Shown: positions 16,041-25,305 of the stretch, piece after piece | Position numbering within the stretch: the first letter of the stretch is position 1 | Layout of the letters: each line of letters opens with the position of its first letter | Source of the DNA: Chloroflexota bacterium | GTDB lineage: Bacteria > Chloroflexota > Limnocylindria > QHBO01 | Direction: 5' to 3' | NCBI GenBank assembly: GCA_038040195.1 | Contig: JBBPIR010000001.1 | Coordinates: 489,141-553,140 of the forward strand | Length of the DNA: 64,000 bases | The notes under the pieces: generated by a model | Told to the model about the DNA's origin: nothing | The model's database searches: none | What the model saw: the letters and a program-made list of their open reading frames with translations, nothing else | Position numbers and translations under genes: made by a program

Positions 16041-16384
16041 CCTCACCTCCCGGCGCGGGCACAGCAGGTGTCGCGGATGGAGCGACGCCATGCCCGGCCC
16101 TGATGGCTGCGACGACCACGTGCATCAGCAGAGATCGTGGACCTGAGCAGCGGGGTCCGGATCTGCGAACACGCGTCGCGGCTGCACGTGCTCATGGAGC
16201 TGCGCAACTTGAGCGGGCCCCGTCGCGGGGCCTCGTGGTAGCACCCGATGGTATCGCCGGCGGTGGCCGCGGGTCAAATCGCCGCATTCGCGGCGAGCCG
16301 GCGTTCAGGTCGCAGCCGGGGCGTCAAACCGAACAGACGATCGCGCCTCCGATTCGTGAGCGGGGCAACTTCGTGCTCAGAAGA

Positions 16385-16459
16385 CTGGAGCCGAAGGTGG
16401 GATTCGAACCCACGACCGACGGTTTACGAAACCGTTGCTCTACCCCTGAGCTACTTCGG
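16385..16459 (-). tRNA. tRNA-Thr (anticodon CGU), CCA encoded
   Basis: 75 nt, hand-folded cloverleaf. Acceptor GCCGAAG/CTTCGGC, anticodon stem ACGGT/ACCGT with loop TTCGTAA, T-arm GTGGGTTCGAATCCCAC, 3-prime TCCA. Confidence 0.9.
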
Positions 16460-17339
16460 CCCGATCGCCGGCCGATTTTAGCGCCTCTCCCTTTGCGCTC
16501 CCCAACCTGACCGAGGGCGGCGCCCAGCCGTGGAGCAGCTCGTCGTGGTAGCGCGGCCCGCGCTCCAGCGAACGGGGAATGGGGGCCATCCGCGCCTTTC
16601 CGCGCTGGACCAGGGCGAAGTACGGGCACAGGTCGGTGAGCGGGCACAGGCCGCAGATGGGGCGCGGGGCGCGGCACACCTCCCGCCCGTGGCGTATGAG
16701 CAGCACGTGCCCGGCGTACATGGCCTCGGGCGGCACCACTTCCTCCAGCAGGTCGTGGGCCCGGGTCAGGTCGGTCTTGGGCGGGAGCAGGCCCAGCCGG
16801 GAGGCGACTCGATAGACGTGGGTGTCGACCGGCAGCGCGGGCCGGCCGAACGCGAACAGGAGCACGATCGATGCCGTCTTGCGCCCAATCCCGGGCAGGC
16901 CCACCAGCCACTCGCGGGCCCGCTCGAGCGGCCACTCCCGCAGGTACCCGAGGTCCCAGGTCCCGTTCGTGGCGTCGTGGACCTCGGCCAGAACGAGCTG
17001 GATGCGGCGGGACTTGGTTGGGGCCAGCCCGCCGGGCCGGATGACGTCTGCCAGTTCGTCGGTCGGCGCAGCCAGCACGGCGTCCCACGACGGGTAGGCA
17101 GCCCGCAGGGCCACGAAGGCGCGGTGCGAATTCGTGTCGGCCGTGTTCTGGGCCAGCACGGTCAGGACCAGCTCCGCGACGGGGTCCAGCCGCGGACCGG
17201 ACCAGACCGGCATTCCGTATCGGTCAGCCAGGCGTTCCAGGATGGGACGGATGCGCGCGCGCCGCACGCGGCGCAGCGCGGCCAGCCGGCGGCGGTTGAC
17301 CCGCGATCGCACCCTGCGAGGTCGTGCGGCGTCCGTCAC
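16440..17339 (-). CDS. nth: Endonuclease III family DNA glycosylase (HhH-GPD with 4Fe-4S loop)
   Basis: HhH LPGIGRKTASIVLLFAFG, PVDTHVYRV, and Fe-S loop CRAPRPICGLCPLTDLC. The GTG start at 17339 forms a GTGA overlap with the upstream gene. The 3-prime 20 nt overlap the tRNA-Thr. Confidence 0.75.
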   Translation of the reverse strand: MTDAARPRRVRSRVNRRRLAALRRVRRARIRPILERLADRYGMPVWSGPRLDPVAELVLTVLAQNTADTNSHRAFVALRAAYPSWDAVLAAPTDELADVIRPGGLAPTKSRRIQLVLAEVHDATNGTWDLGYLREWPLERAREWLVGLPGIGRKTASIVLLFAFGRPALPVDTHVYRVASRLGLLPPKTDLTRAHDLLEEVVPPEAMYAGHVLLIRHGREVCRAPRPICGLCPLTDLCPYFALVQRGKARMAPIPRSLERGPRYHDELLHGWAPPSVRLGSAKGEALKSAGDRAEVAQG

Positions 17340-17623
17340 GCGGCTCCCAGCCTCGCGGTCTCGCGGGCATACCCGGCCCAGGCCCCGGCTCCGAGTCGCG
17401 AGGCCTGGCCCAGGTCGACGATCCGACCCCGACCATCCTGCCGCGTGGCCCACGCGTCCGCGTGGTCGGGTGAGCAGAGCAGCACGGTTGGGGTGCAGAA
17501 CTCGGCCCTCAAGTCCGTTCCGCCGGCGGCCAACCACAGGCGCTGGGGTGGCTCGGCCTCGGCCCCGATCGGTACCCGGAGCGTGAATGCGGTGCGCCGC
17601 ACGATCTCGTCGACGTCTCGCAC
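17336..17623 (-). CDS. Small hypothetical protein; C-terminal pattern loosely reminiscent of the MerB C-terminus
   Basis: 95 aa with GC3-rich codons. The GTG start lies 1 nt after the glxK stop and a GTGA overlap links it to nth. FCTPTVLLCSPDHADAWA...LGAG resembles the MerB C-terminal region from memory only. Confidence 0.35.
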   Translation of the reverse strand: MRDVDEIVRRTAFTLRVPIGAEAEPPQRLWLAAGGTDLRAEFCTPTVLLCSPDHADAWATRQDGRGRIVDLGQASRLGAGAWAGYARETARLGAA

Positions 17624-17624
17624 G

Positions 17625-18800
17625 TTAGCCTCGGCTCCCCAATCCCTGACCGATGTCGATGCTGCGCGCCAACCGGGCAGCCGCATTGGCCAGCAGGCGT
17701 TCGGTGTCGGCCATGGCGATTTCCAGGCCGAGTGGTCGATCGATGATGGGCTGCACCACGGCGAACGCCCCCGACTCCTCGACGATCTCGGCGCCTGGGC
17801 CCAGGCCGCCGCACAGCAGGACGACCGGGGCATTGCCGGCATGATGGGCCACCCCCAGCGCCGCCTTGCCGGCCAGGGTCTGCTCGTCGGCCCGCCCCTC
17901 CCCGGTGATGACCAGGTCCGCCCCCTCGCAGGCCGCCGCCAGGCCCACCAGGTCGGCCACGACCTCCACGCCGGAGCGCAGCTCGGCGGAGGTGAAGCCC
18001 AGCAGCCCGGCCGTTGTCCCGCCGGCCGCGCCGGCGCCTCGGACCTCCGCCACGTCGCGACCCGTCGCTCGTCGGATCTCGGCTCCCCAGCGCACCAGGG
18101 CCTCGTCCAGCTCGGCGACGGCGTCGGGGTCCGCGCCCTTCTGCGGCCCGTAGCTCGCGGCTGCGCCGTTCGGCCCGGTCAGGGGGTTGGTGACGTCGGA
18201 AGCGATCAGGATCTCGACCTCGGCCAGCCGCGGATCGAGCCCGTCGGCGTCGACGTGGTCCAACGTCGCCAGGGCCGCGCCGCCGTCCGGCACCTGGCCC
18301 CCGCGGGCGTCGAGCAGCCGGAGCCCCATCTCGACCAGCAGCCCCGCCCCGCCATCGGTGGTGGCCGATCCGCCAAGGCCAACCACGATCCGTCCCGTGC
18401 CGGCATCCAGCGCCGCCGCGATGAGCCGTCCCGACCCCCGGGTCGTGGCCAACCGAGCACTGGTCGACGTCCGCTCCGCCAAGGCCAGCCGCGCCAGCCC
18501 GCTGGCCGCCGCCATCTCCACGAACCCCGTTGCACCGCCGTCGAGCGCCAGCCAGTCCGCGCTGATCGGCCGGCCCAGGGGATCGGTCGTCATCACCGTG
18601 TTCCGGGTGGCCGCGCTTCCCCGAGCTGCGGCGATCGCGGCCAGGGTCCCCTCGCCCCCGTCCGCCATCGGGATCTTCACCACCACATCGTCGGGCCGCG
18701 CCGAGGCCCAGCCGCGGGCCATGGCCTCGGCGACCGCCACCGAGTCCAGCGCACCCCCGAACGAGTCGGGAGCCACGACCACGCGCAGCGGCGGGCTCAT
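17625..18800 (-). CDS. glxK: Glycerate kinase (GlxK/GarK family)
   Basis: 391 aa. VVVAPDSFGG, MADGGEGT, ITGEGRADEQTLAGKA patterns. Confidence 0.85.
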   Translation of the reverse strand: MSPPLRVVVAPDSFGGALDSVAVAEAMARGWASARPDDVVVKIPMADGGEGTLAAIAAARGSAATRNTVMTTDPLGRPISADWLALDGGATGFVEMAAASGLARLALAERTSTSARLATTRGSGRLIAAALDAGTGRIVVGLGGSATTDGGAGLLVEMGLRLLDARGGQVPDGGAALATLDHVDADGLDPRLAEVEILIASDVTNPLTGPNGAAASYGPQKGADPDAVAELDEALVRWGAEIRRATGRDVAEVRGAGAAGGTTAGLLGFTSAELRSGVEVVADLVGLAAACEGADLVITGEGRADEQTLAGKAALGVAHHAGNAPVVLLCGGLGPGAEIVEESGAFAVVQPIIDRPLGLEIAMADTERLLANAAARLARSIDIGQGLGSRG

Positions 18801-20707
18801 CGGGAAAGCTCCTTGCGCCTCGCGAGGTAGGCGGGGATCGTGTTCATCGGCGGTCGAATCTCGTCCCCCACCTCGCGGACCTCCAGGCTGAATTTGTCAC
18901 CTTCCTGGCGGATCTGCTTCATCCGCTCGCCCATGTCGGTCAGCAGCTCAATCCGCTGACGCTCCTCCAGCTTGGTGATCCCGGCCTTGAGGATGACAAA
19001 GGCCATCCGCGACAGGTCCAGCAGCGACTGGTTGCGATGGATGCGGCGCTCGAGGTCGACCTGCCCGATGCCGGACAGGCCGACGCGGTCCAGGATGTCG
19101 ATGAGCAGCCCGATCTCGACCGCGTAGCCGGTGAAGAACGGCACCGACTCGAGGAGCGCGCGACGCCCCGCGTACTCCCCGGCCAGGGGTTGGATGATGC
19201 CGGACAGCTCGGGGAAGAACAGGTTGATGAGCGGGCGAGCGGTCAGCTCTGTCACCCGTCCGCCCTCGTCGGGCTGGCGCCGCCCGCCAGCCGTCAGGGG
19301 CCGTTGGTAGAAGGCCTTCACGTAGTGGATCCGCGACTCGCGCAGGAGCGGGCCCAGCAGGCCGTACACGAAGCGAGGCTGGATGTTGCGGATGTCGGTG
19401 TCGACCCAGACCACGATGTCCCCGCGCAGCTCGTACAGGCTCTTCCACAGCGCTTCGCCCTTGCCGACGTGGCTCCCCAGCTCCGGGAGGATGGTGTCGT
19501 GCTGGCGGACGGGTGCCCCCAGCTCGCGGGCGATCTCCACCGTTCGGTCGGTGGAGGCCGAGTCGATGACGAGCAGCTCGTCCACCAACGGCACGCGGTC
19601 CATGAGCGCATCGCGAATGCGACGGATGACCAGCCCGATGGTCTTCTCTTCGTTCAGGGTCGGTAGTCCCACGCTGATGGTCAGGCCCTGGCGCTCCTTG
19701 AGGTCCACCAGGCGCTTGAGGTCGCGAAATTCGCTGGTGTCGAACGTGTTCTCGGCAAACCAGCGGTCGACCACGCTCGGCAGGCTGCGGGTCTGCTCGA
19801 TGGCGGCGTCCGCGGCGGGCAGGCTTCCGGTCTCGGCCCGGAGATGTTCGAAGGTGACTGCGGTGAACGGTTGTCGGGTCTTGACCACCATCACGGTTGG
19901 CTTGGCGCGGCTGGCGACTGTCTCCGCCAGCCGCCCGAACAGGCGCCGGCCCGATCCGGCTCCGGTCGGCTGGGCAGAGGCCCCGACCACAACCAGGTCG
20001 TGGTTCGCGGCCTCTTGCAGGATGGCGCCCCGAACGGTCGGCGCCTCCACCAGCAGCTGGCGGACCTTGACCCCTCGGGTATTACGCCTGACCAGGCGGC
20101 CAAGCGCCGCCCGCTCGTCCTCGAGCGCGGCCGAGCCACCCTCGGGCGGGACCACGTGCAGAACGACCAGCTCAGCGCCGAAGCCGCGCGCCAGGTCGGT
20201 GGCCAGCGAGAGCGCCAGCTCGGCATTCGGACCTCCCCGAACCGGGACCAGGATGGAGCGGACGGTTCCCAGTGCGCGCTGCTTGACCACGGCGATATCG
20301 CATGGGGCCTCACGGACGACCTGGTCAATGGTGGTCGAGAAGACCGCGTGCCGCAGGCCGGTCGGTTGGGGGCCGCCCCAGCCGAAGACCACCAGGTCGG
20401 CCCCGATCTCGGCCACCGCCTCCACGATCCCCTCCGACGCCTGGCGGCCGATGCGGACCGCGGTATGGACCTCGACCGACGCGTCGTCCCGGAAGTCAGG
20501 CACCCGCTGGAGCAGGCGGCGGGCCTGGCGCGCGCGGCTGGCGCCCTCCGCCAGCGACACGCCCTCGGGGACCTCGACGATGCCCAGCGCGGTGATCTCG
20601 GTGGGCCGCCGGTGGGCGAGGTGGGAACCGATGCGGATCAGGTCGCGCGCGGTGCGCGGGTTGGCCAGCGGCATGAGGACCCGATACGGACCACGCCGGC
20701 GGGCCAT
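18797..20707 (-). CDS. gpgS: Tandem universal-stress-protein domains fused to glucosyl-3-phosphoglycerate synthase (GT81)
   Basis: 636 aa. The N-terminal ~300 aa have two Usp-like repeats (DLVVFGWGG, DLVVVGAS). The C-terminal ~320 aa align motif by motif with mycobacterial GpgS as I recall it (PTLNEE, GKGEALW, DTD, GGRVTEL, QPLAGEY, GYAVEIGLLID). Confidence 0.8.
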   Translation of the reverse strand: MARRRGPYRVLMPLANPRTARDLIRIGSHLAHRRPTEITALGIVEVPEGVSLAEGASRARQARRLLQRVPDFRDDASVEVHTAVRIGRQASEGIVEAVAEIGADLVVFGWGGPQPTGLRHAVFSTTIDQVVREAPCDIAVVKQRALGTVRSILVPVRGGPNAELALSLATDLARGFGAELVVLHVVPPEGGSAALEDERAALGRLVRRNTRGVKVRQLLVEAPTVRGAILQEAANHDLVVVGASAQPTGAGSGRRLFGRLAETVASRAKPTVMVVKTRQPFTAVTFEHLRAETGSLPAADAAIEQTRSLPSVVDRWFAENTFDTSEFRDLKRLVDLKERQGLTISVGLPTLNEEKTIGLVIRRIRDALMDRVPLVDELLVIDSASTDRTVEIARELGAPVRQHDTILPELGSHVGKGEALWKSLYELRGDIVVWVDTDIRNIQPRFVYGLLGPLLRESRIHYVKAFYQRPLTAGGRRQPDEGGRVTELTARPLINLFFPELSGIIQPLAGEYAGRRALLESVPFFTGYAVEIGLLIDILDRVGLSGIGQVDLERRIHRNQSLLDLSRMAFVILKAGITKLEERQRIELLTDMGERMKQIRQEGDKFSLEVREVGDEIRPPMNTIPAYLARRKELSR

Positions 20708-22008
20708 CAGCCCGGCCCCCCGACCTTTCCCCCGGCCGACTGCGCCTGCCAGGCGCGGACCAGCCAGGGCTTGAGGTCCTCGAACTCGCGGGCCTGGCTC
20801 TCGACCAGCCGTTCGGCCTGCTCATCGGTCATCTCACGAGCCTCATTGAAGAAGCCCGCGGTACGCCCGAAGTACAGCCCGGTCAGGCCCGCCAGCAGCG
20901 CGTCGCGGTCGATGCCCGGCCGTTGAAAGGCGAGCAACGCGTCGTAGAGGCAGCGGATCCAGAGCTCCGAGGGGAAGGTGAAGGCCGCAGGGTCCTCGGC
21001 AGGCAGCGCCAGCACCCGTTCCAGCTGCTCCCCGGCCAGGGTCCGCTTCCACACCTGGCGCTGGGCCAGGCGCGCGGTCTCGAACGCGTCCACGAGCTTG
21101 GCCTGGTTGACCGTTATCGCCTCTGGCAGCACCACCCGCTCGAAGCCGTACTCGGGAACCGGCTGCGAGCCGCGGACCGGGAGCCACGCCTCGGACATCG
21201 AGCCAGCCAGCCGGAACAGGGTGCCGACCACCTGCCGGAACATGGGTCCCAGGTCAGAGGCGGGATCCTTGGGGTCGTGGATCTTGGCCCCCAGCCTGGT
21301 CTGGCACACCGCAAACCCGGCGGCCAGGGCGTGGTGAGTCATCCAGACGTCGATCCCGAACTTCGCCGTGGCCTCGTCCCAGTCGTCGAGTTCCAGCAGG
21401 GCGTTGACCAGGTCGCGGCTGAAGGCGAACTCGCCCCCGATCGGCTGGCGCATCCGCCGCCCATACAGGGTCCGCGTCAGGGGGTAGGCGATCTGGTTGG
21501 TGATGGTCCCGTCGAACTTGTGGCGCGCGTACAGAGGGGCCACGTAGTCGTAGCCGCCCTTCAGGATCGGACCCGCCAGCAGCTCTATCCACTCGGGCAC
21601 GATGCTCCGCAGGTCGGAGTCGACCAGCACCAGGGCCTCGACCTTCAGCTCGCGGGCGACCTCCAGCAGCGCCCGGACGGCGGACCCCTTGCCGCTCGGC
21701 CCGCGGTAGGTGACCGCGACCCGTCGCAGCCGATGCGGCGGCCGGACCAGGATCATCTTTTCGAGGTAGGCGGGGCTCTCCGTGCTGACCGCCACCCGTG
21801 GCGTGTCGTCGGGCGATCCCCCGTCGGCGTTGACCAGGACCGGCTTCAACTCCGGGAAGTACTGGACCATGCCGGCCATGGCGGCCCGGACGACGTAACC
21901 GATGGTGTCGGCGTTGCCGAAGCTGGGGATCCCGACCATGAGGTCCGCCTGGCCGACCCCCCGCACTGCGGACCGACCGCGCGCATCGAGGGCGGAGGCG
22001 ACGCTCAC
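20707..22008 (-). CDS. GT-A glycosyltransferase resembling mannosylglycerate/glucosylglycerate synthases (GT78-like)
   Basis: 433 aa. GIPSFGNADTIG, GKGSAVRAL, VDSDLRSI, QPIGGEFAF and FGIDVWM parallel the Rhodothermus MGS motif order as recalled. The GTG start at 22008 forms a GTGA overlap with the upstream gene. Confidence 0.55.
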   Translation of the reverse strand: MSVASALDARGRSAVRGVGQADLMVGIPSFGNADTIGYVVRAAMAGMVQYFPELKPVLVNADGGSPDDTPRVAVSTESPAYLEKMILVRPPHRLRRVAVTYRGPSGKGSAVRALLEVARELKVEALVLVDSDLRSIVPEWIELLAGPILKGGYDYVAPLYARHKFDGTITNQIAYPLTRTLYGRRMRQPIGGEFAFSRDLVNALLELDDWDEATAKFGIDVWMTHHALAAGFAVCQTRLGAKIHDPKDPASDLGPMFRQVVGTLFRLAGSMSEAWLPVRGSQPVPEYGFERVVLPEAITVNQAKLVDAFETARLAQRQVWKRTLAGEQLERVLALPAEDPAAFTFPSELWIRCLYDALLAFQRPGIDRDALLAGLTGLYFGRTAGFFNEAREMTDEQAERLVESQAREFEDLKPWLVRAWQAQSAGGKVGGPG

Positions 22009-22703
22009 CGGGTGATCTCGCGCTTCTTGCGTCCCTTCCAGAACAGGCCGGTCACGCCGGGGTGCCGGTCTGGGTCGATGGTGATGATGATCCAGTCCTC
22101 GTTCGACGTCCCGGGCCGGTAGCGCGAGTTGGCGTGCTTGGCCACCGCGCGGCTGAATCCGTTCTCCTGCCAGGCGTGGAACCACGACCGGAGTGGCATC
22201 TTGATCGAGGGCGTGACCCGCAGCCGAACACTCTCGCTGACCACCCCCGACAGGAGGCGGCGGCGCTCCTGGTACGGGTGCTCACCCAAGAACTGCCCGT
22301 CCAGCTCGATGAGGTCGACGACCACGAATGCGCGCCGCTTCTCCAGCTGCGCGGGATCGGGTCCGTCCTCGGGCAGATCGCCGGCCTCGTCGGCCAGCGC
22401 TTCGGACCAGCGTTCGGCCGCCGATCCGCGACCCAGGAACGGCTGTGCGGTCCAGATCCCGTCCAGCACCGCCTGGTCGGCGTCGACCGAGGTCCGCAGC
22501 ACCTCGGCCAGGTCGCCGTAGAACTCGTCGACGGCGTGTCCGCCGGCATCGGTCAGGCGAATTTCGCCGTCCGCGACGCGAGCCAGCAGCCGTTCCCCGA
22601 TCCAGTACGGCTCGAACGACCAATGCGGACTGTTGATTCCGACGCTCGCCTCGGTGGCGAGCTGGGGGCGGATCGGCTCGTCGCCCAAGGGCTGATCGGT
22701 CAT
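22005..22703 (-). CDS. LigD/ATP-dependent-DNA-ligase-like nucleotidyltransferase domain with catalytic residues substituted (pseudo-ligase)
   Basis: 232 aa, collinear with the ligase motifs. Motif I reads EPYWIGER instead of E-x-K-x-D-G-x-R. Motif III reads VLDGIW (no Glu). Motif IV reads GFSRAVAK and motif V reads WIIITI (no Lys). ATGA overlap with the helicase gene. Confidence 0.55.
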   Translation of the reverse strand: MTDQPLGDEPIRPQLATEASVGINSPHWSFEPYWIGERLLARVADGEIRLTDAGGHAVDEFYGDLAEVLRTSVDADQAVLDGIWTAQPFLGRGSAAERWSEALADEAGDLPEDGPDPAQLEKRRAFVVVDLIELDGQFLGEHPYQERRRLLSGVVSESVRLRVTPSIKMPLRSWFHAWQENGFSRAVAKHANSRYRPGTSNEDWIIITIDPDRHPGVTGLFWKGRKKREITR

Positions 22704-23968
22704 CGGTACAGGCCCAGCTCCCCCTCTTCGACCTCCATGCCCACCTCGGACCGGATGGCCTGCCACGCGTCGAGATCCCACTCGGCGACGAACGTGATGG
22801 CCGTGCCGGCACGCCCCATTCGCGCCGTGCGACCCACCCGGTGGACGTAGGTGTCCGCGTCCTCGGGGATGTCGTAGCTCAGGACGTACGGCAGGTCGGT
22901 GATGTCCAGCCCGCGGCTGGCGACATTGGTGGCCACCAGGAACTGGATCTCCCCCGCCTTGAAAGCGGCCAGCGTCTTCTCCCGCTCCCGCTGGGACAGG
23001 CCGCCATGGAGGGCGGCCGCGTTCCTGCCCCGCCGCTTGAGCGAGGCGCTCAGCCGATCCACGCCGATCTGGGTATGGCGGAAGATGAGGAGCCGATCGA
23101 ACCCGAACCCATCGGCCAGCTCAATCAGGGCCGCCACTTTGTCCTGCTCGGCCACGAAGTAGACCATCTGGCGGACCGTTTCGACCAACTTCAGCTCGGG
23201 ACGGACCGCGATGTGGTCCGCGTCGCGGCGCATGAACCGATCGCAGATGCGGAGGATGGCGTACGGCATGGTGGCGCTGAACAGCGCCGTCTGGCGTTGG
23301 CGCGGGCAGCGGGCCAGGATCGTCTCCACGTCCACGATGAAGCCCATGTCCAACATCCGGTCGGCCTCGTCGAGGATCACGGTCCGCACCGATTCCAGGC
23401 GCAGCTCCCCTCGACGGATGAGGTCGAGAACGCGCCCCGGGGTGCCGATCACGACTTGCGCTCCGCGCTGGAGGGCGGTGATCTGGCGGTCCATGGCCGC
23501 TCCGCCGTAGATGGCCACCGTCTTGACGTTCCGGAAGCGCCCGATGCGGGCGATCTCGGCGGTGACCTGCTGGCACAGCTCCCGGGTGGGGGTCAGGATC
23601 AGGGCCTGGACCGATTTCGAGCCGGGGTCCACGTGCTCGACGATGGGGATCCCGAACGCGGCCGTCTTGCCCGTCCCGGTCTGGGCCTGACCGATGAGAT
23701 CGTGGCCCGCCCGGAGGGGCGGAATAGCCCGGGCCTGGACCTCGGTGGGCGTGACGTAGCCCATCTGCTCCAGGGCGCGGGCGATGGTGACCGGGACCTC
23801 GATGTCCCCGAACCGATACCCGGCCGCAGCGGCCATCACGGCCGCAGTCAGCGCGGAGAGGGGTTCGGCAGTCGGTTCGGCGGTGGGCTGGCGGCCGTCG
23901 GTGTGCGGCGGCGGGACCGGCGCGCGGCGACGCGTTCGGCGACGGGGCGTGGTCGGGGTTGGCGGCAA
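22700..23968 (-). CDS. DEAD-box ATP-dependent RNA helicase
   Basis: 422 aa. Q-motif TPTEVQ, AQTGTGKT, PTRELC, DEAD, SAT, ARGLD and HRVGRTAR. Confidence 0.9.
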   Translation of the reverse strand: MPPTPTTPRRRTRRRAPVPPPHTDGRQPTAEPTAEPLSALTAAVMAAAAGYRFGDIEVPVTIARALEQMGYVTPTEVQARAIPPLRAGHDLIGQAQTGTGKTAAFGIPIVEHVDPGSKSVQALILTPTRELCQQVTAEIARIGRFRNVKTVAIYGGAAMDRQITALQRGAQVVIGTPGRVLDLIRRGELRLESVRTVILDEADRMLDMGFIVDVETILARCPRQRQTALFSATMPYAILRICDRFMRRDADHIAVRPELKLVETVRQMVYFVAEQDKVAALIELADGFGFDRLLIFRHTQIGVDRLSASLKRRGRNAAALHGGLSQREREKTLAAFKAGEIQFLVATNVASRGLDITDLPYVLSYDIPEDADTYVHRVGRTARMGRAGTAITFVAEWDLDAWQAIRSEVGMEVEEGELGLYR

Positions 23969-24070
23969 GCAGTGGCTCCGGCAGGTTGTTGATCGGTTGC
24001 TCGGATCGTAGCACGGGCGCTTCCCGCGCCTTGACGGCGGCCCATTACGCGTTGATACTGCGTCTCAGGT

Positions 24071-24817
24071 ATGACTCCCCTCCTGGTCGCCATGTCGGCC
24101 ACCGCTGTCCTGTCTGCCCTGGGCGGCGGGGTGATGGCGTTGCGGCTCGTCCGGCAGGTGGGCTACGTCATCGCGGTCGGGGCCGGGATCCGGATCGGAG
24201 CCGCGTTCTTCGACCTGCTACCCGAATCGGTGGAGTTGATGGCCGGTGCCACGAACTTGGCCATGTTATTCGCGGCGGTGGGCTTCCTCGCCTTCTACGT
24301 GATCGAGAAGGTGACGCTCCTGCACGTCGGCCACGAAACGGCGACCGAGCTCGACCACGACGACGCGGCCCACCGTCACGTGGGGCTCATCGGGGCCGGC
24401 GCGATGTCGGTCCACAGCCTTCTCGACGGGGTGGCCATGGCGGCCGCATTCCAGGCCAGCCCGGAGCTCGGCCTCGTCGTCAGCCTGGTCGTCGTCATCC
24501 ATCGGTTCAGCGACGGGATCGGCATCGTGAGCCTGCTGCTCGCCAGCCGCGTACCGCAATCATCGACCATGCGCTGGGTCTTCGTCGTGAGCCTGGCACC
24601 GGTGCTCGGGGCTGCGGTGACCGCGATCATCCCGATCCCTGATCCGATTCTGGGGGCCCTGCTGGCCACCTTCGCGGGCTTCTTCCTGTACGTCGGCGCT
24701 GCCGAGCTCTTACCCGAAGCTCACCGCAATGAAGGCTCGCGCTGGGTGATCGTGGCCACGCTGGTCGGCGTGGCGGCGATCATGGCCATGACCTGGGGGC
24801 TGGAAGCGCAACTGTGA
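24071..24817 (+). CDS. ZIP family divalent metal (zinc) transporter
   Basis: 248 aa, about 8 TM helices, with HSLLDGVAMA and HRFSDGIG motifs of ZupT-like proteins. Confidence 0.85.
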   Translation: MTPLLVAMSATAVLSALGGGVMALRLVRQVGYVIAVGAGIRIGAAFFDLLPESVELMAGATNLAMLFAAVGFLAFYVIEKVTLLHVGHETATELDHDDAAHRHVGLIGAGAMSVHSLLDGVAMAAAFQASPELGLVVSLVVVIHRFSDGIGIVSLLLASRVPQSSTMRWVFVVSLAPVLGAAVTAIIPIPDPILGALLATFAGFFLYVGAAELLPEAHRNEGSRWVIVATLVGVAAIMAMTWGLEAQL

Positions 24818-25305
24818 GCGCAGCGACCGCGCGCCGGCTTCGGCTGGCAGGCCAACGCGTCACCACCCAACGGCTGGCCGTGGCCGCAGCACTGTCCTCT
24901 GCGCGCCACCAGGTCACAGCCCAGGAGCTATGGGAGCGGATGCGCCCCCGTCACCGCAACCTGGGCCGCGCGACCGTGTTCCGGACCCTGGAAGCGCTGA
25001 CCGAGGCCGGCCTGGCCCGACGGCTGGAGCGCGACGGCCACATTTACGCCTACGTCGCCTGCCGCCCGGCCCATCACCACCACCTGGCGTGCCGCGTCTG
25101 CGGCACGGTGGAGGAGGTCGGGGAGGAGCTGGTGGCCGAGATCAGCCGGCGCGCGCGACGCGAGCTGGGGTTCGAGATCGAGGACGCGAGGATGGACTTC
25201 TACGGCGTGTGCCGCCGATGCGCCGCCGAGGCGGCCGAGGCTCAGGCGGCGGCCGATGCATCCGCGGCCGCTGAGGTGGCCGAGACGGCTCCGCCTAGTA
25301 GCTGA
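24814..25305 (+). CDS. Fur family metalloregulator (Zur-like by context)
   Basis: 163 aa. Winged helix plus HHHLACRVCG...CRRC metal sites. 4-nt overlap with the ZIP gene. Confidence 0.8.
   Translation: MSAATARRLRLAGQRVTTQRLAVAAALSSARHQVTAQELWERMRPRHRNLGRATVFRTLEALTEAGLARRLERDGHIYAYVACRPAHHHHLACRVCGTVEEVGEELVAEISRRARRELGFEIEDARMDFYGVCRRCAAEAAEAQAAADASAAAEVAETAPPSS

Follow-up and report, generated by a model that had tools for sequence, protein, structure and literature searches.

The gene analysed here, ligL, lies on the minus strand at 22005..22703 (stop codon included) of the window, by which we mean the whole 64,000-nucleotide stretch of Chloroflexota DNA that was examined. It runs from an ATG at 22703 to a TGA at 22005 and encodes a 232-aa protein, a stand-alone LigD-type nucleotidyltransferase (NTase) domain that has neither the nucleophilic Lys nor an OB domain. 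A longer reading from a GTG at 22781 (258 aa) was rejected because it overlaps the 3' end of the upstream gene and because the ATG is the start of the closest homologues, which have 232 aa. That upstream gene, in the same transcription unit, encodes a DEAD-box RNA helicase of the CshA/DbpA/RhlE-like type (22700..23968, minus), extended at the N terminus by an Arg/Pro-rich segment but not at the C terminus, and the helicase stop codon and the ligL start share an ATGA, read directly from the sequence at 22700..22703 (minus). At the other end, the ligL stop overlaps in a GTGA (22005..22008, minus) the GTG start of a glycosyltransferase gene (20707..22008, minus), a start that agrees with orthologue N-termini in the alignment; the glycosyltransferase carries a C-terminal extension of ~190 aa and has weak matches to the MGS_GT, GT2 and GpgS families. 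The two overlaps uphold the translational coupling of ligL between helicase and glycosyltransferase that an earlier note on this DNA had read from the sequence. The ATGA is confined to the closest relatives and gives way to gaps of 14-70 nt in deeper ones, the helicase-to-ligL spacing ranging overall from a 4-nt overlap up to ~70 nt. The rest of the conserved block (16440..20707, minus) comprises a Usp-Usp-GpgS fusion (18797-20707), a glycerate kinase (17625-18800) and an HhH-GPD/endonuclease III-like glycosylase (16440-17537), all on the minus strand. The GC and GC3 of ligL match those of its neighbours (GC3 = 0.88), and a foreign insertion was rejected as its origin on this ground; a defence-system or phage origin was rejected likewise, as PADLOC and PHROGs gave no matches.

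The ligL product matches the Pfam family DNA_ligase_A_M with E=2.2e-8 and 34.5 bits, the cut-off being 26.2 bits, over profile positions 20-201 of 204. With phmmer, it aligns with the ligase (LIG) domain of Mycobacterium tuberculosis (Mtb) LigD (1VS0/6NHX) at E~1e-12, and a family profile gives E=4e-19. Homology to the ligase NTase domain is, on these alignments, far beyond chance, and we assign to ligL a homologous nucleotidyltransferase (adenylation) domain fold. The Pfam and phmmer results also bear out the collinearity with this domain proposed in the earlier note, which extends over motifs I, III, IIIa, IV and V of Mtb LigD (Rv0938; PDB 1VS0, 6NHX, 6NHZ). ligL reaches the curated NCBIfam score of no ligase equivalog, its best matches being PRK09632 (82 bits versus a cut-off of 989) and NHEJ_ligase_lig (63.7 versus 227.75). 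An OB-fold domain with motif VI was searched for and PF04679 gave no match; the protein stops 24 residues past motif V, and these residues are predicted to be disordered. At the level of sequence, the comparisons demonstrate that ligL consists of an NTase domain standing alone, whose ancestor was an ATP-dependent DNA ligase of the LigD type.

Positional orthologues of ligL occupy 71 GTDB species loci of Ca. Limnocylindria, all with an intact ORF, and the ORF is also intact in hundreds of metagenomic clusters. Besides the helicase-linked clade to which the gene of the window belongs, there is a sister clade of 727 matches, ~30% identical, whose few source-named members are Limnocylindrales. The chromosomal position of ligL is the same in both clades.

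Residue roles in Mtb LigD were taken from the literature (PMC8656161), and our statements about the pocket rest on alignment to them. In the degenerate motif I (W28-SFEPYWIGE-R38; 22590..22622, minus), the nucleophile K481 is replaced by Y33 (codon 22605-22607) and D483 by I35, and E31, W34, G36 and R38 are kept; further on, R501 reads A53. The degenerate motif III (A78-VLDGIW-T85; 22449..22472, minus) keeps D81-G82 and has I83 in place of the Glu (E530); W84 and T85 beside it are clade-specific invariants. In the motif IIIa region (A125-FVVVDLIELD-G136; 22296..22331, minus), F126 and D130 are kept, and V129 replaces a Phe that is 100% conserved among the 49 active ligases from the same search. 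The remnant of motif IV (G182-FSRAVA-K189; 22137..22160, minus) has S184-R185 for Glu-Gly, S184 standing for E613, and ends in the invariant K189, after which R629 is replaced by S200. In the remnant of motif V (D203-WIIIT-I209; 22077..22097, minus), W204 remains but neither Lys does, K635 having become I206 and K637 T208.

The K and D of motif I are present in 49/49 of the active ligases, whereas the first Lys of ligL is K122, so that residues 1-121 contain none. A catalytic Lys shifted in register was considered and rejected, as no Lys near motif I is conserved among the homologues. The nucleophile position reads Y/F/A/C/S in the helicase-linked clade and S/G/N/R/A in the sister clade; Lys occupies the column in 0/119 clade-1 sequences and, sporadically, in 5/117 of clade 2, the column being unconstrained. 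The loss of catalytic residues holds across ~236 homologues from both clades. Among the residues shared with Mtb LigD, E31 (E479), R38 (R486, the motif I Arg) and K189 (K618, the motif IV Lys) are invariant in the family, and the DG of motif III (D81-G82), the D of motif IIIa (D130) and the W of motif V are also retained. The family has in addition invariants of its own that are missing from active ligases, namely Q14, P32, R42, D52, T85, R162, P165, P170, W178 and N192.

The alignment thus agrees with the earlier note at motif I (Lys to Tyr, Asp to Ile), motif III (Glu lost), motif IV and motif V (both Lys lost). Its statement that every catalytic residue is replaced is correct for most of them and overstated for E31, R38, K189, D81-G82 and D130. 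As judged from the aligned positions, ligL lacks every residue needed for self-adenylylation or DNA sealing. With its nucleophile, the ligands for metal and triphosphate, the Phe of motif IIIa and the OB domain all lost, the protein should be able neither to self-adenylylate nor to seal, in line with the pseudoenzyme unable to ligate that had been proposed.

ligL differs from Mtb LigD also in its charge and in two added segments. A clade-specific acidic insertion of a helix and a loop follows motif III (R92-L120; 22344..22430, minus); it is absent in Mtb LigD and is modelled with lower confidence (pLDDT 62-66). At the C terminus, a basic tail, R213-HPGVTGLFWKGRKKREIT-R232 (22008..22067, minus), has a net charge of +6 and is predicted to be disordered; it is a conserved linear motif in the helicase-linked clade only, the sister clade having no tail. 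The basic part of ligL is limited to these 20 residues. The core is strongly acidic (pI 4.7, net charge -15), whereas the equivalent fragment of Mtb LigD has a pI of 9.2; such an acidity makes it less likely that the domain on its own binds nucleic acid. The suggestion of the earlier note that the protein was retained for nucleic-acid or nucleotide binding is not borne out and is partly contradicted, given that the phosphate and metal residues and the motif IIIa Phe are gone and the core is acidic.

The HNH-CCA-GalE-...-GT-GpgS-GlyK-EndoIII block is syntenic class-wide, so the adjacencies of ligL may reflect ancestry and not function. In the sister clade, which belongs to the same class, the ligL orthologue directly follows GalE, with no helicase, and in one sister sub-lineage it opens the unit, preceded by a transporter gene of divergent orientation. 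Since the sister clade has no helicase neighbour, ligL predates the helicase adjacency, which is lineage-specific; the association with the glycosyltransferase operon is older, and the glycosyltransferase itself is the most deeply conserved of the downstream neighbours. The idea, raised earlier, of a clade defined by the Lys-to-Tyr change and tied to DEAD-box helicases therefore survives in part: the helicase is adjacent in the lineage of the window, but the sister clade is GalE-adjacent and the Tyr is not conserved. The glycosyltransferase operon lies directly downstream of ligL in 57/65 of the informative loci from metagenomes and in most of those from genomes, and is the sole neighbour common to both clades. 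This would fit a role of ligL as a regulator or sensor of the compatible-solute operon, with a cleft that binds an NDP-sugar or an adenosine derivative and a modulation of the glycosyltransferases by protein contact. The GTGA overlap in the subclade of the window, the position of ligL at the start of the unit in one sister sub-lineage and the presence before ligL, in the sister clade, of the nucleotide-sugar enzyme GalE point in the same direction. However, ~5 species keep ligL without adjoining glycosyltransferase, GpgS and GlyK genes (L033, L036, L048, L052, L053), eight loci have the operon without ligL, many lineages have a promoter-like GTGCTACC[CA]T motif between the ligL and glycosyltransferase genes, and the phosphate-binding residues of the ancestral pocket are all lost. 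We consider such a role unlikely. The helicase, ligL and the glycosyltransferase operon are each found without the others, so that guilt by association points to no single partner.

Descent from an NHEJ-type ligase, with PRK09632 and NHEJ_ligase_lig as the best NCBIfam matches, would be in keeping with an accessory role in DNA repair, be it recognition of a nick or a 5'-phosphate, a hand-off of base-excision intermediates from the nearby endonuclease III-like glycosylase, or competition with or regulation of LigD/Ku. The HhH-GPD glycosylase that ends the block comes immediately after ligL in loci that lack the sugar genes, although it usually lies 4-5 kb away. We find a repair role quite improbable, for the core is acidic, the OB and DNA-binding domains are absent, and ligL has lost the lysines of motif V and the Phe of motif IIIa, residues that active ligases require at a nick. 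Unlike LigD, ligL has no POL or PE domain fused or adjoining, and no gene for Ku, a polymerase (AEP) or a phosphoesterase was found within 6-7 kb in the window and the related loci examined.

ligL might also be a relic of evolution, a piece of a ligase that is decaying without function and persists through synteny. It is the fastest-evolving gene of the conserved block, with a between-clade identity of 30% versus 45-58% for its neighbours and an evolution rate ~2x theirs, and its former nucleophile position is unconstrained. It is missing from 8/65 informative related loci that retain the glycosyltransferase operon, and the helicase too is retained in five ligL-less loci (L093, L097, L109, L116, L122). 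A sensitive six-frame profile search of the ligL-less loci for remnants returned nothing better than E=3.7; the absences are therefore clean, and ligL is dispensable, not essential. Against decay, neither disrupted ORFs in the 71 species loci nor dN/dS near 1 were seen: dN/dS is 0.08-0.31 at an unsaturated dS of 0.15-0.72, similar to that of the adjoining glycerate kinase, and 47 columns are invariant in 20 members at 46-87% identity, some of them family-specific and not inherited from ligases. The gene was moreover kept across a divergence that left its neighbours 45-58% identical, and it gained a new conserved tail. These patterns of substitution, together with the presence of ligL in 71 species and in the sister clade, demonstrate maintenance by purifying selection throughout the class Ca. 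Limnocylindria, so that the retention by selection assumed in the earlier note is sustained and a functionless relic seems improbable to us. That ligL is still an enzyme, with another nucleophile or a new chemistry such as nucleotidyl transfer or a non-covalent transferase reaction, is extremely unlikely: E31, R38, D81, D130 and K189 do remain invariant, R42, T85, R162 and N192 are new invariants, and USP53/USP54, annotated as pseudoenzymes, reportedly proved active, but no Lys, His, Ser or Tyr is conserved at or near the nucleophile position, the metal ligands and phosphate clamps are all lost, and no member of the ligase/capping superfamily is known to function when the Lys of motif I is missing.

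Among kinases, phosphatases and proteases there are many documented cases of relatives that have lost catalysis. The explanation that we favor, and to which we would give about an even chance, is that this pseudoenzyme acts as a non-catalytic binding or adaptor protein. It might then serve as a module comparable to the Lys-less capping-enzyme NTase domain with which snurportin-1 holds the cap. The m3G-cap-binding domain of snurportin-1 (PDB 1XK5, 3GJX, 5DIS) is the best functional precedent, as an analogy and not as a homologous family, and like ligL it is a stand-alone NTase fold without the nucleophilic Lys and without an OB domain. Work by Strasser et al. in 2005 reportedly established that snurportin-1, devoid of the catalytic Lys and of the OB domain, binds the cap non-covalently by aromatic stacking. 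The two proteins nevertheless differ: snurportin-1 is eukaryotic, belongs to the capping-enzyme branch and has importin-beta- and CRM1-binding extensions, whereas ligL belongs to the DNA-ligase branch; no sequence similarity between them is detectable (13% identity, absent from the profile search).

The old AMP cleft of ligL appears to have kept its five lining strands intact, together with a putatively buried and invariant polar set (E31, R38, D81, D130 and K189). Its charges would have been swapped for hydrophobic or aromatic residues, namely Y/F33, W84 (Y/F83 in the sister clade), W178 and F183. A cleft remodelled in this way may suit a non-covalently bound ligand, be it an uncharged group (base-like or other) or a peptide from a partner, and the aromatics Y33, W84, W178 and F183 are suggestive of a snurportin-type mode. 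Alternatively, the retained polar residues may have a structural role only, and the aromatic side chains may do no more than fill the cleft.

The basic tail and the helicase adjacency co-occur, both being present in one clade and neither in the sister clade. The helicase has no C-terminal RNA-binding extension. Building on the binding or adaptor reading, we tentatively suggest, as a possibility rather than a probability, that ligL was captured into a two-gene unit with the helicase and acquired the conserved tail at that same point, and that it acts there as an accessory subunit whose tail contacts RNA or the helicase. A bolder version can be drawn from the ancestral chemistry. Ligase NTase pockets hold the AMP of the A(5')pp(5')N intermediate, so a Lys-less version could bind such ends without reacting. 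ligL would on this account be a bacterial counterpart of snurportin that reads a 5'-5'-linked adenylate or cap-like end (AppN, NpnN, NAD-type) or an adenine-containing signal, the tail delivering this specificity to the DEAD-box helicase; we regard it as very unlikely.

The ligL family would represent a new kind of pseudoenzyme; it has hundreds of members in two clades and a fixed genomic position, is under purifying selection and is restricted to an abundant, uncultured class of soil and freshwater Chloroflexota. Our literature searches on Lys-less or inactive LigD-like proteins, on ligase pseudoenzymes and on Limnocylindria combined with ligase or helicase found nothing relevant. The source annotations of ligL as 'ATP-dependent DNA ligase' or 'bifunctional NHEJ protein LigD' are wrong on sequence grounds, and such misannotation would inflate the NHEJ capacity inferred for metagenome-assembled genomes. 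Should the cleft bind a nucleotide-like ligand or an RNA end, ligL would constitute an independent bacterial parallel to snurportin and a new type of partner for DEAD-box proteins.

Two other systems invite comparison. The poxvirus A20/A22 protein, a DNA-polymerase processivity factor with a ligase-like middle domain, is much more distantly similar to ligL; A22 is viral and multi-domain and bridges the polymerase to uracil-DNA glycosylase. The Lhr-Core/MPE/ligase damage-response cluster (TIGR04121/TIGR04120) likewise places a helicase beside a gene of the ATP-dependent-ligase family. Unlike in that cluster, no MPE nuclease gene accompanies ligL, the ligase-like protein is dead (18.8 bits against TIGR04120, the cut-off being 400), and the helicase is of the DEAD-box RNA type, scoring 298-426 bits against the CshA, DbpA and RhlE models (426 for CshA) versus 53 bits against TIGR04121.

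On sequence grounds, it is firmly established that ligL, which runs on the minus strand from an ATG at 22703 to a TGA at 22005 (232 aa), encodes a descendant of a LigD-type adenylation domain that is catalytically dead, has no OB domain, and has been kept by selection. The earlier note took the protein to be collinear with the ligase domain, and indeed it matches Pfam DNA_ligase_A_M at 34.5 bits (gathering score, 26.2) over profile positions 20-201 of 204. Its closest solved relative is the ligase domain of M. tuberculosis LigD (Mtb LigD; E~1e-12 with the single sequence, 4e-19 with a family profile), and an AlphaFold2 model has a mean pLDDT of 80, core blocks at 84-96, and the expected strand order. 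Alignment to Mtb LigD, with roles taken from a structural review of LigD (PMC8656161), places Y33 at the motif I nucleophile K481, I35 at D483 of the same motif, A53 at R501 (ATP gamma-phosphate/ribose), I83 at E530 of motif III (water-mediated ribose contact), S184 at E613 of motif IV, S200 at R629 (ATP gamma-phosphate), and I206 and T208 at the motif V lysines K635 and K637. The motif IIIa Phe, invariant in 49 active ligases from the same profile search, is V129. The substitutions that the note had read in motifs I, III, IV, and V are therefore all borne out, but its wording that every catalytic residue is replaced went too far: most are, yet E31 (E479, motif I), R38 (R486, the motif I ribose contact), and K189 (K618, motif IV) are retained, as are D81-G82, D130, and W204. 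A search for a catalytic Lys in register returned none, residues 1-121 containing no lysine at all, and no OB domain was found in ligL, which ends 24 residues past motif V. With neither nucleophile nor OB domain, without the ligands for metal and phosphate, and scoring below every NCBIfam cut-off, ligL differs from ATP-dependent DNA ligases and is rightly called a pseudoenzyme.

In the old AMP cleft, hydrophobic or aromatic side chains stand in place of several catalytic charges: Y/F33, I/V83 with W84 (Y/F83 in the sister clade, whose ligL block lacks the helicase), V129, W178, F183, and I/V206. Since every phosphate and metal ligand is gone, ATP binding is unlikely. The core (residues 1-212) has a pI of 4.7 and a net charge of -15, the equivalent Mtb LigD fragment having a pI of 9.2, and because of this charge the core itself probably does not bind nucleic acid. 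The basic C-terminal 20 residues, RHPGVTGLFWKGRKKREITR (net charge, +6), are predicted to be disordered (pLDDT 30-42) and yet are conserved as a linear motif in 120 sequences (P215 in 115/120, G219 in 97/120, R225 in 114/120, and I230 in 112/120). This tail is confined to the helicase-linked clade of the window; sister-clade proteins stop 4-8 residues past the motif V Trp. The reading given in the note thus finds support as to the pseudoenzyme, whereas retention for nucleic-acid or nucleotide binding stays conjectural. We propose, at about an even chance, that the Limnocylindria protein acts as a noncatalytic binding or adaptor module on its remodeled cleft.

The coupling described in the note was confirmed: the ligL start overlaps the stop of an upstream DEAD-box RNA helicase gene (22700-23968, minus strand; 422 aa) as ATGA, and its stop overlaps, as GTGA, the start of a glycosyltransferase gene (20707-22008, minus strand; 433 aa), a GTG that agrees with the orthologue alignment. 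The GC content (0.69) and GC3 (0.88) of ligL are like those of its neighbors. The helicase matches Pfam DEAD (169 bits), Helicase_C (97 bits), and the NCBIfam CshA/DbpA/RhlE models (298-426 bits), and it ends directly after the second RecA domain, without a C-terminal RNA-binding extension; a basic extension of this kind is typical of CshA, RhlE, and DeaD. Its N-terminal ~50 residues form a Pro/Thr/Arg-rich extension, MPPTPTTPRRRTRRRAPVPP.... Upstream of the helicase and divergent from it, at 23969-24070 and 24071-25305 (plus strand), lie a ZIP-family metal transporter and a Fur-family regulator, whose stop and start codons overlap; the pair is found in part of the clade only, and the region holds a sigma-70-like promoter match at 24031-24059.

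The glycosyltransferase carries a ~190-aa C-terminal extension and has weak MGS_GT (30 bits), GT2, and GpgS-like (PRK13915, 58 bits versus a cut-off of 262) matches; none of its orthologues in the sister clade has a precomputed Pfam match. It is very strongly conserved across both Limnocylindria clades (55% identity, with long invariant stretches) and may belong to an uncharacterized glycosyltransferase family of a glucosylglycerate or mannosylglucosylglycerate-type pathway. Downstream of it lies a 636-aa fusion (18797-20707, minus strand; PRK13915, 387 bits versus 262) of two universal-stress-protein domains with a full glucosyl-3-phosphoglycerate synthase, whose stop codon overlaps the start of a glycerate kinase gene (17625-18800, minus strand). 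The sugar cluster of the window shows no evident gene for a phosphatase. An HhH-GPD/endonuclease III-like gene comes next (16440-17537, minus strand); a tRNA-Thr(CGT) at 16386-16460 on the same strand covers the last ~20 nt of its longest ORF and is followed by a weak terminator-like hairpin (16335-16348).

When one genome from each GTDB species was scanned, 71 ligL loci were found, nearly all in Limnocylindria or Chloroflexota MAGs, and almost all 71 species keep the order of the window's clade: HNH, CCA-adding enzyme, GalE, (Fur, ZIP), helicase, ligL, glycosyltransferase, Usp-GpgS fusion, glycerate kinase, and endonuclease III. The helicase and ligL overlap in the closest relatives only, the other loci having a gap of about 14-70 nt. 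The sister clade has the same block without the helicase, ligL lying about 25 nt after GalE or, in one sublineage, after a divergently oriented transporter gene; the helicase is therefore a lineage-specific acquisition next to ligL, and the sugar operon is the older neighbor. The K-to-Y clade tied to DEAD-box helicases that the note envisaged thus holds for helicase adjacency in the window's clade but not for the sister clade, nor is column 33 uniformly Tyr. In one Limnocylindria genome (L056:2455-5900), opposite-strand genes for a ClC-type channel and a MarR-like regulator split the helicase from ligL; the helicase is apparently frameshifted or truncated, and the basic tail of ligL is still there. 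A conserved 425- to 600-aa protein with no Pfam matches (L072:3018-4820 and counterparts in the related loci L077, L079, and L080) is encoded in the sister clade between the genes for GalE and the CCA-adding enzyme, a position from which it is missing in the window's clade.

In about five species (loci L033, L036, L048, L052, and L053), the helicase, ligL, and endonuclease III genes succeed one another without intervening sugar genes. Among metagenomic contigs surveyed with the glycosyltransferase gene as anchor, ligL lies upstream of this gene in 57 of 65 informative loci and is missing from 8, in none of which a remnant was found; the helicase directly adjoins the glycosyltransferase in three of the eight (L109, L116, and L122). 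None of the neighbor associations of ligL is thus obligatory, and ligL is dispensable. An extended -10-like motif, GTGCTACC[CA]T, was seen in 45 of the 143 related loci (within L023-L138, e.g., L029 and the three just named), mostly 50-105 nt 5' of the glycosyltransferase start but, in a few ligL-less loci, closer to it, at about 30 nt. Motif-bearing loci always have an intergenic gap or lack ligL; the motif is absent from the window, in whose subclade the gap has been lost and the genes are fused. In many lineages, then, the sugar operon is probably transcribed from a promoter of its own, in which case the helicase unit would end with ligL.

Within the adaptor reading, the protein with its new basic tail might have been recruited in the window's lineage as an accessory of the DEAD-box helicase, a suggestion that we hold only tentatively. 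A role as sensor or regulator for the compatible-solute operon, its older neighbor but one missing beside ligL in some species, seems unlikely. We consider still less probable a DNA repair accessory working with the endonuclease III-like glycosylase or against LigD/Ku: the glycosylase gene does close the block, and no Ku, POL, or PE gene lies within 6-7 kb of ligL in the loci examined, which sets the locus apart from LigD/NHEJ systems.

A first database search with ligL returned 187 clusters, the best 120 of which are 48-99% identical to it and nearly all 224-245 aa long, those with a named organism being Ca. Limnocylindria or Chloroflexota. Position 33 among the best clusters is Y (85), A (11), C (9), F (7), or S (7), never Lys. 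Searching 1.84 billion cluster representatives with a profile revealed a second tier of ~230-250 aa with the signature PExWxGR...DG[YF]L...K..SY...W, outscoring true LigD proteins, which begin near E~1e-23; a search seeded with one member (P0278) gave 727 matches, the few organism-named ones being Limnocylindrales. The column of the old nucleophile is essentially free of constraint in these second-clade proteins (S 50, G 21, N 14, R 9, A 9, K 5, and others); Y/F/H/W take the place of the motif III Glu, and I/V and P/S that of the two motif V lysines. Both clades share E31, W34, G36, R38, D81-G82, F126, D130, R147, K189, Y195, and W204, as well as invariants not seen in active ligases (Q14, P32, R42, D52, T85, R162, P165, P170, W178, and N192). 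These Lys-less proteins are a conserved family and no accident.

Pairwise Nei-Gojobori dN/dS against orthologues is 0.08-0.31 for ligL (at dS 0.15-0.72), demonstrating purifying selection, 0.05-0.17 for the helicase and glycosyltransferase, and 0.17-0.30 for the glycerate kinase. With about 30% identity between the two clades, compared with 45-58% for its neighbors, ligL is the fastest-evolving gene of the block. That ligL is a functionless relic would fit its dispensability, but selection and the newly gained constraints speak against it, and we rate this as low as the repair role. A cryptic enzyme with a new nucleophile is very improbable for a protein whose former nucleophile column is so variable.

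Source annotations name these proteins "ATP-dependent DNA ligase" or "bifunctional NHEJ protein LigD," which is misleading for a clean, well-delimited pseudoenzyme family. PADLOC and PHROGs searches of ligL gave no matches, our literature search found no published description of Lys-less LigD-like proteins, and the locus falls outside the Lhr-type ligase-associated helicase cluster. Snurportin, with its dead nucleotidyltransferase domain, is an analogue, ligL deriving from the DNA ligase branch. Of note, the motif I Lys or Asp is also lost in proteins outside the ligL family (homologues P0232, P0240, P0247, P0259, and P0213, with WEDWxGR, HERWDGR, or WEKWPGR) in which an OB domain (PF04679) or the 3'-phosphoesterase domain of LigD (PF13298) is still present, so LigD-type ligase domains may have been inactivated repeatedly and independently.
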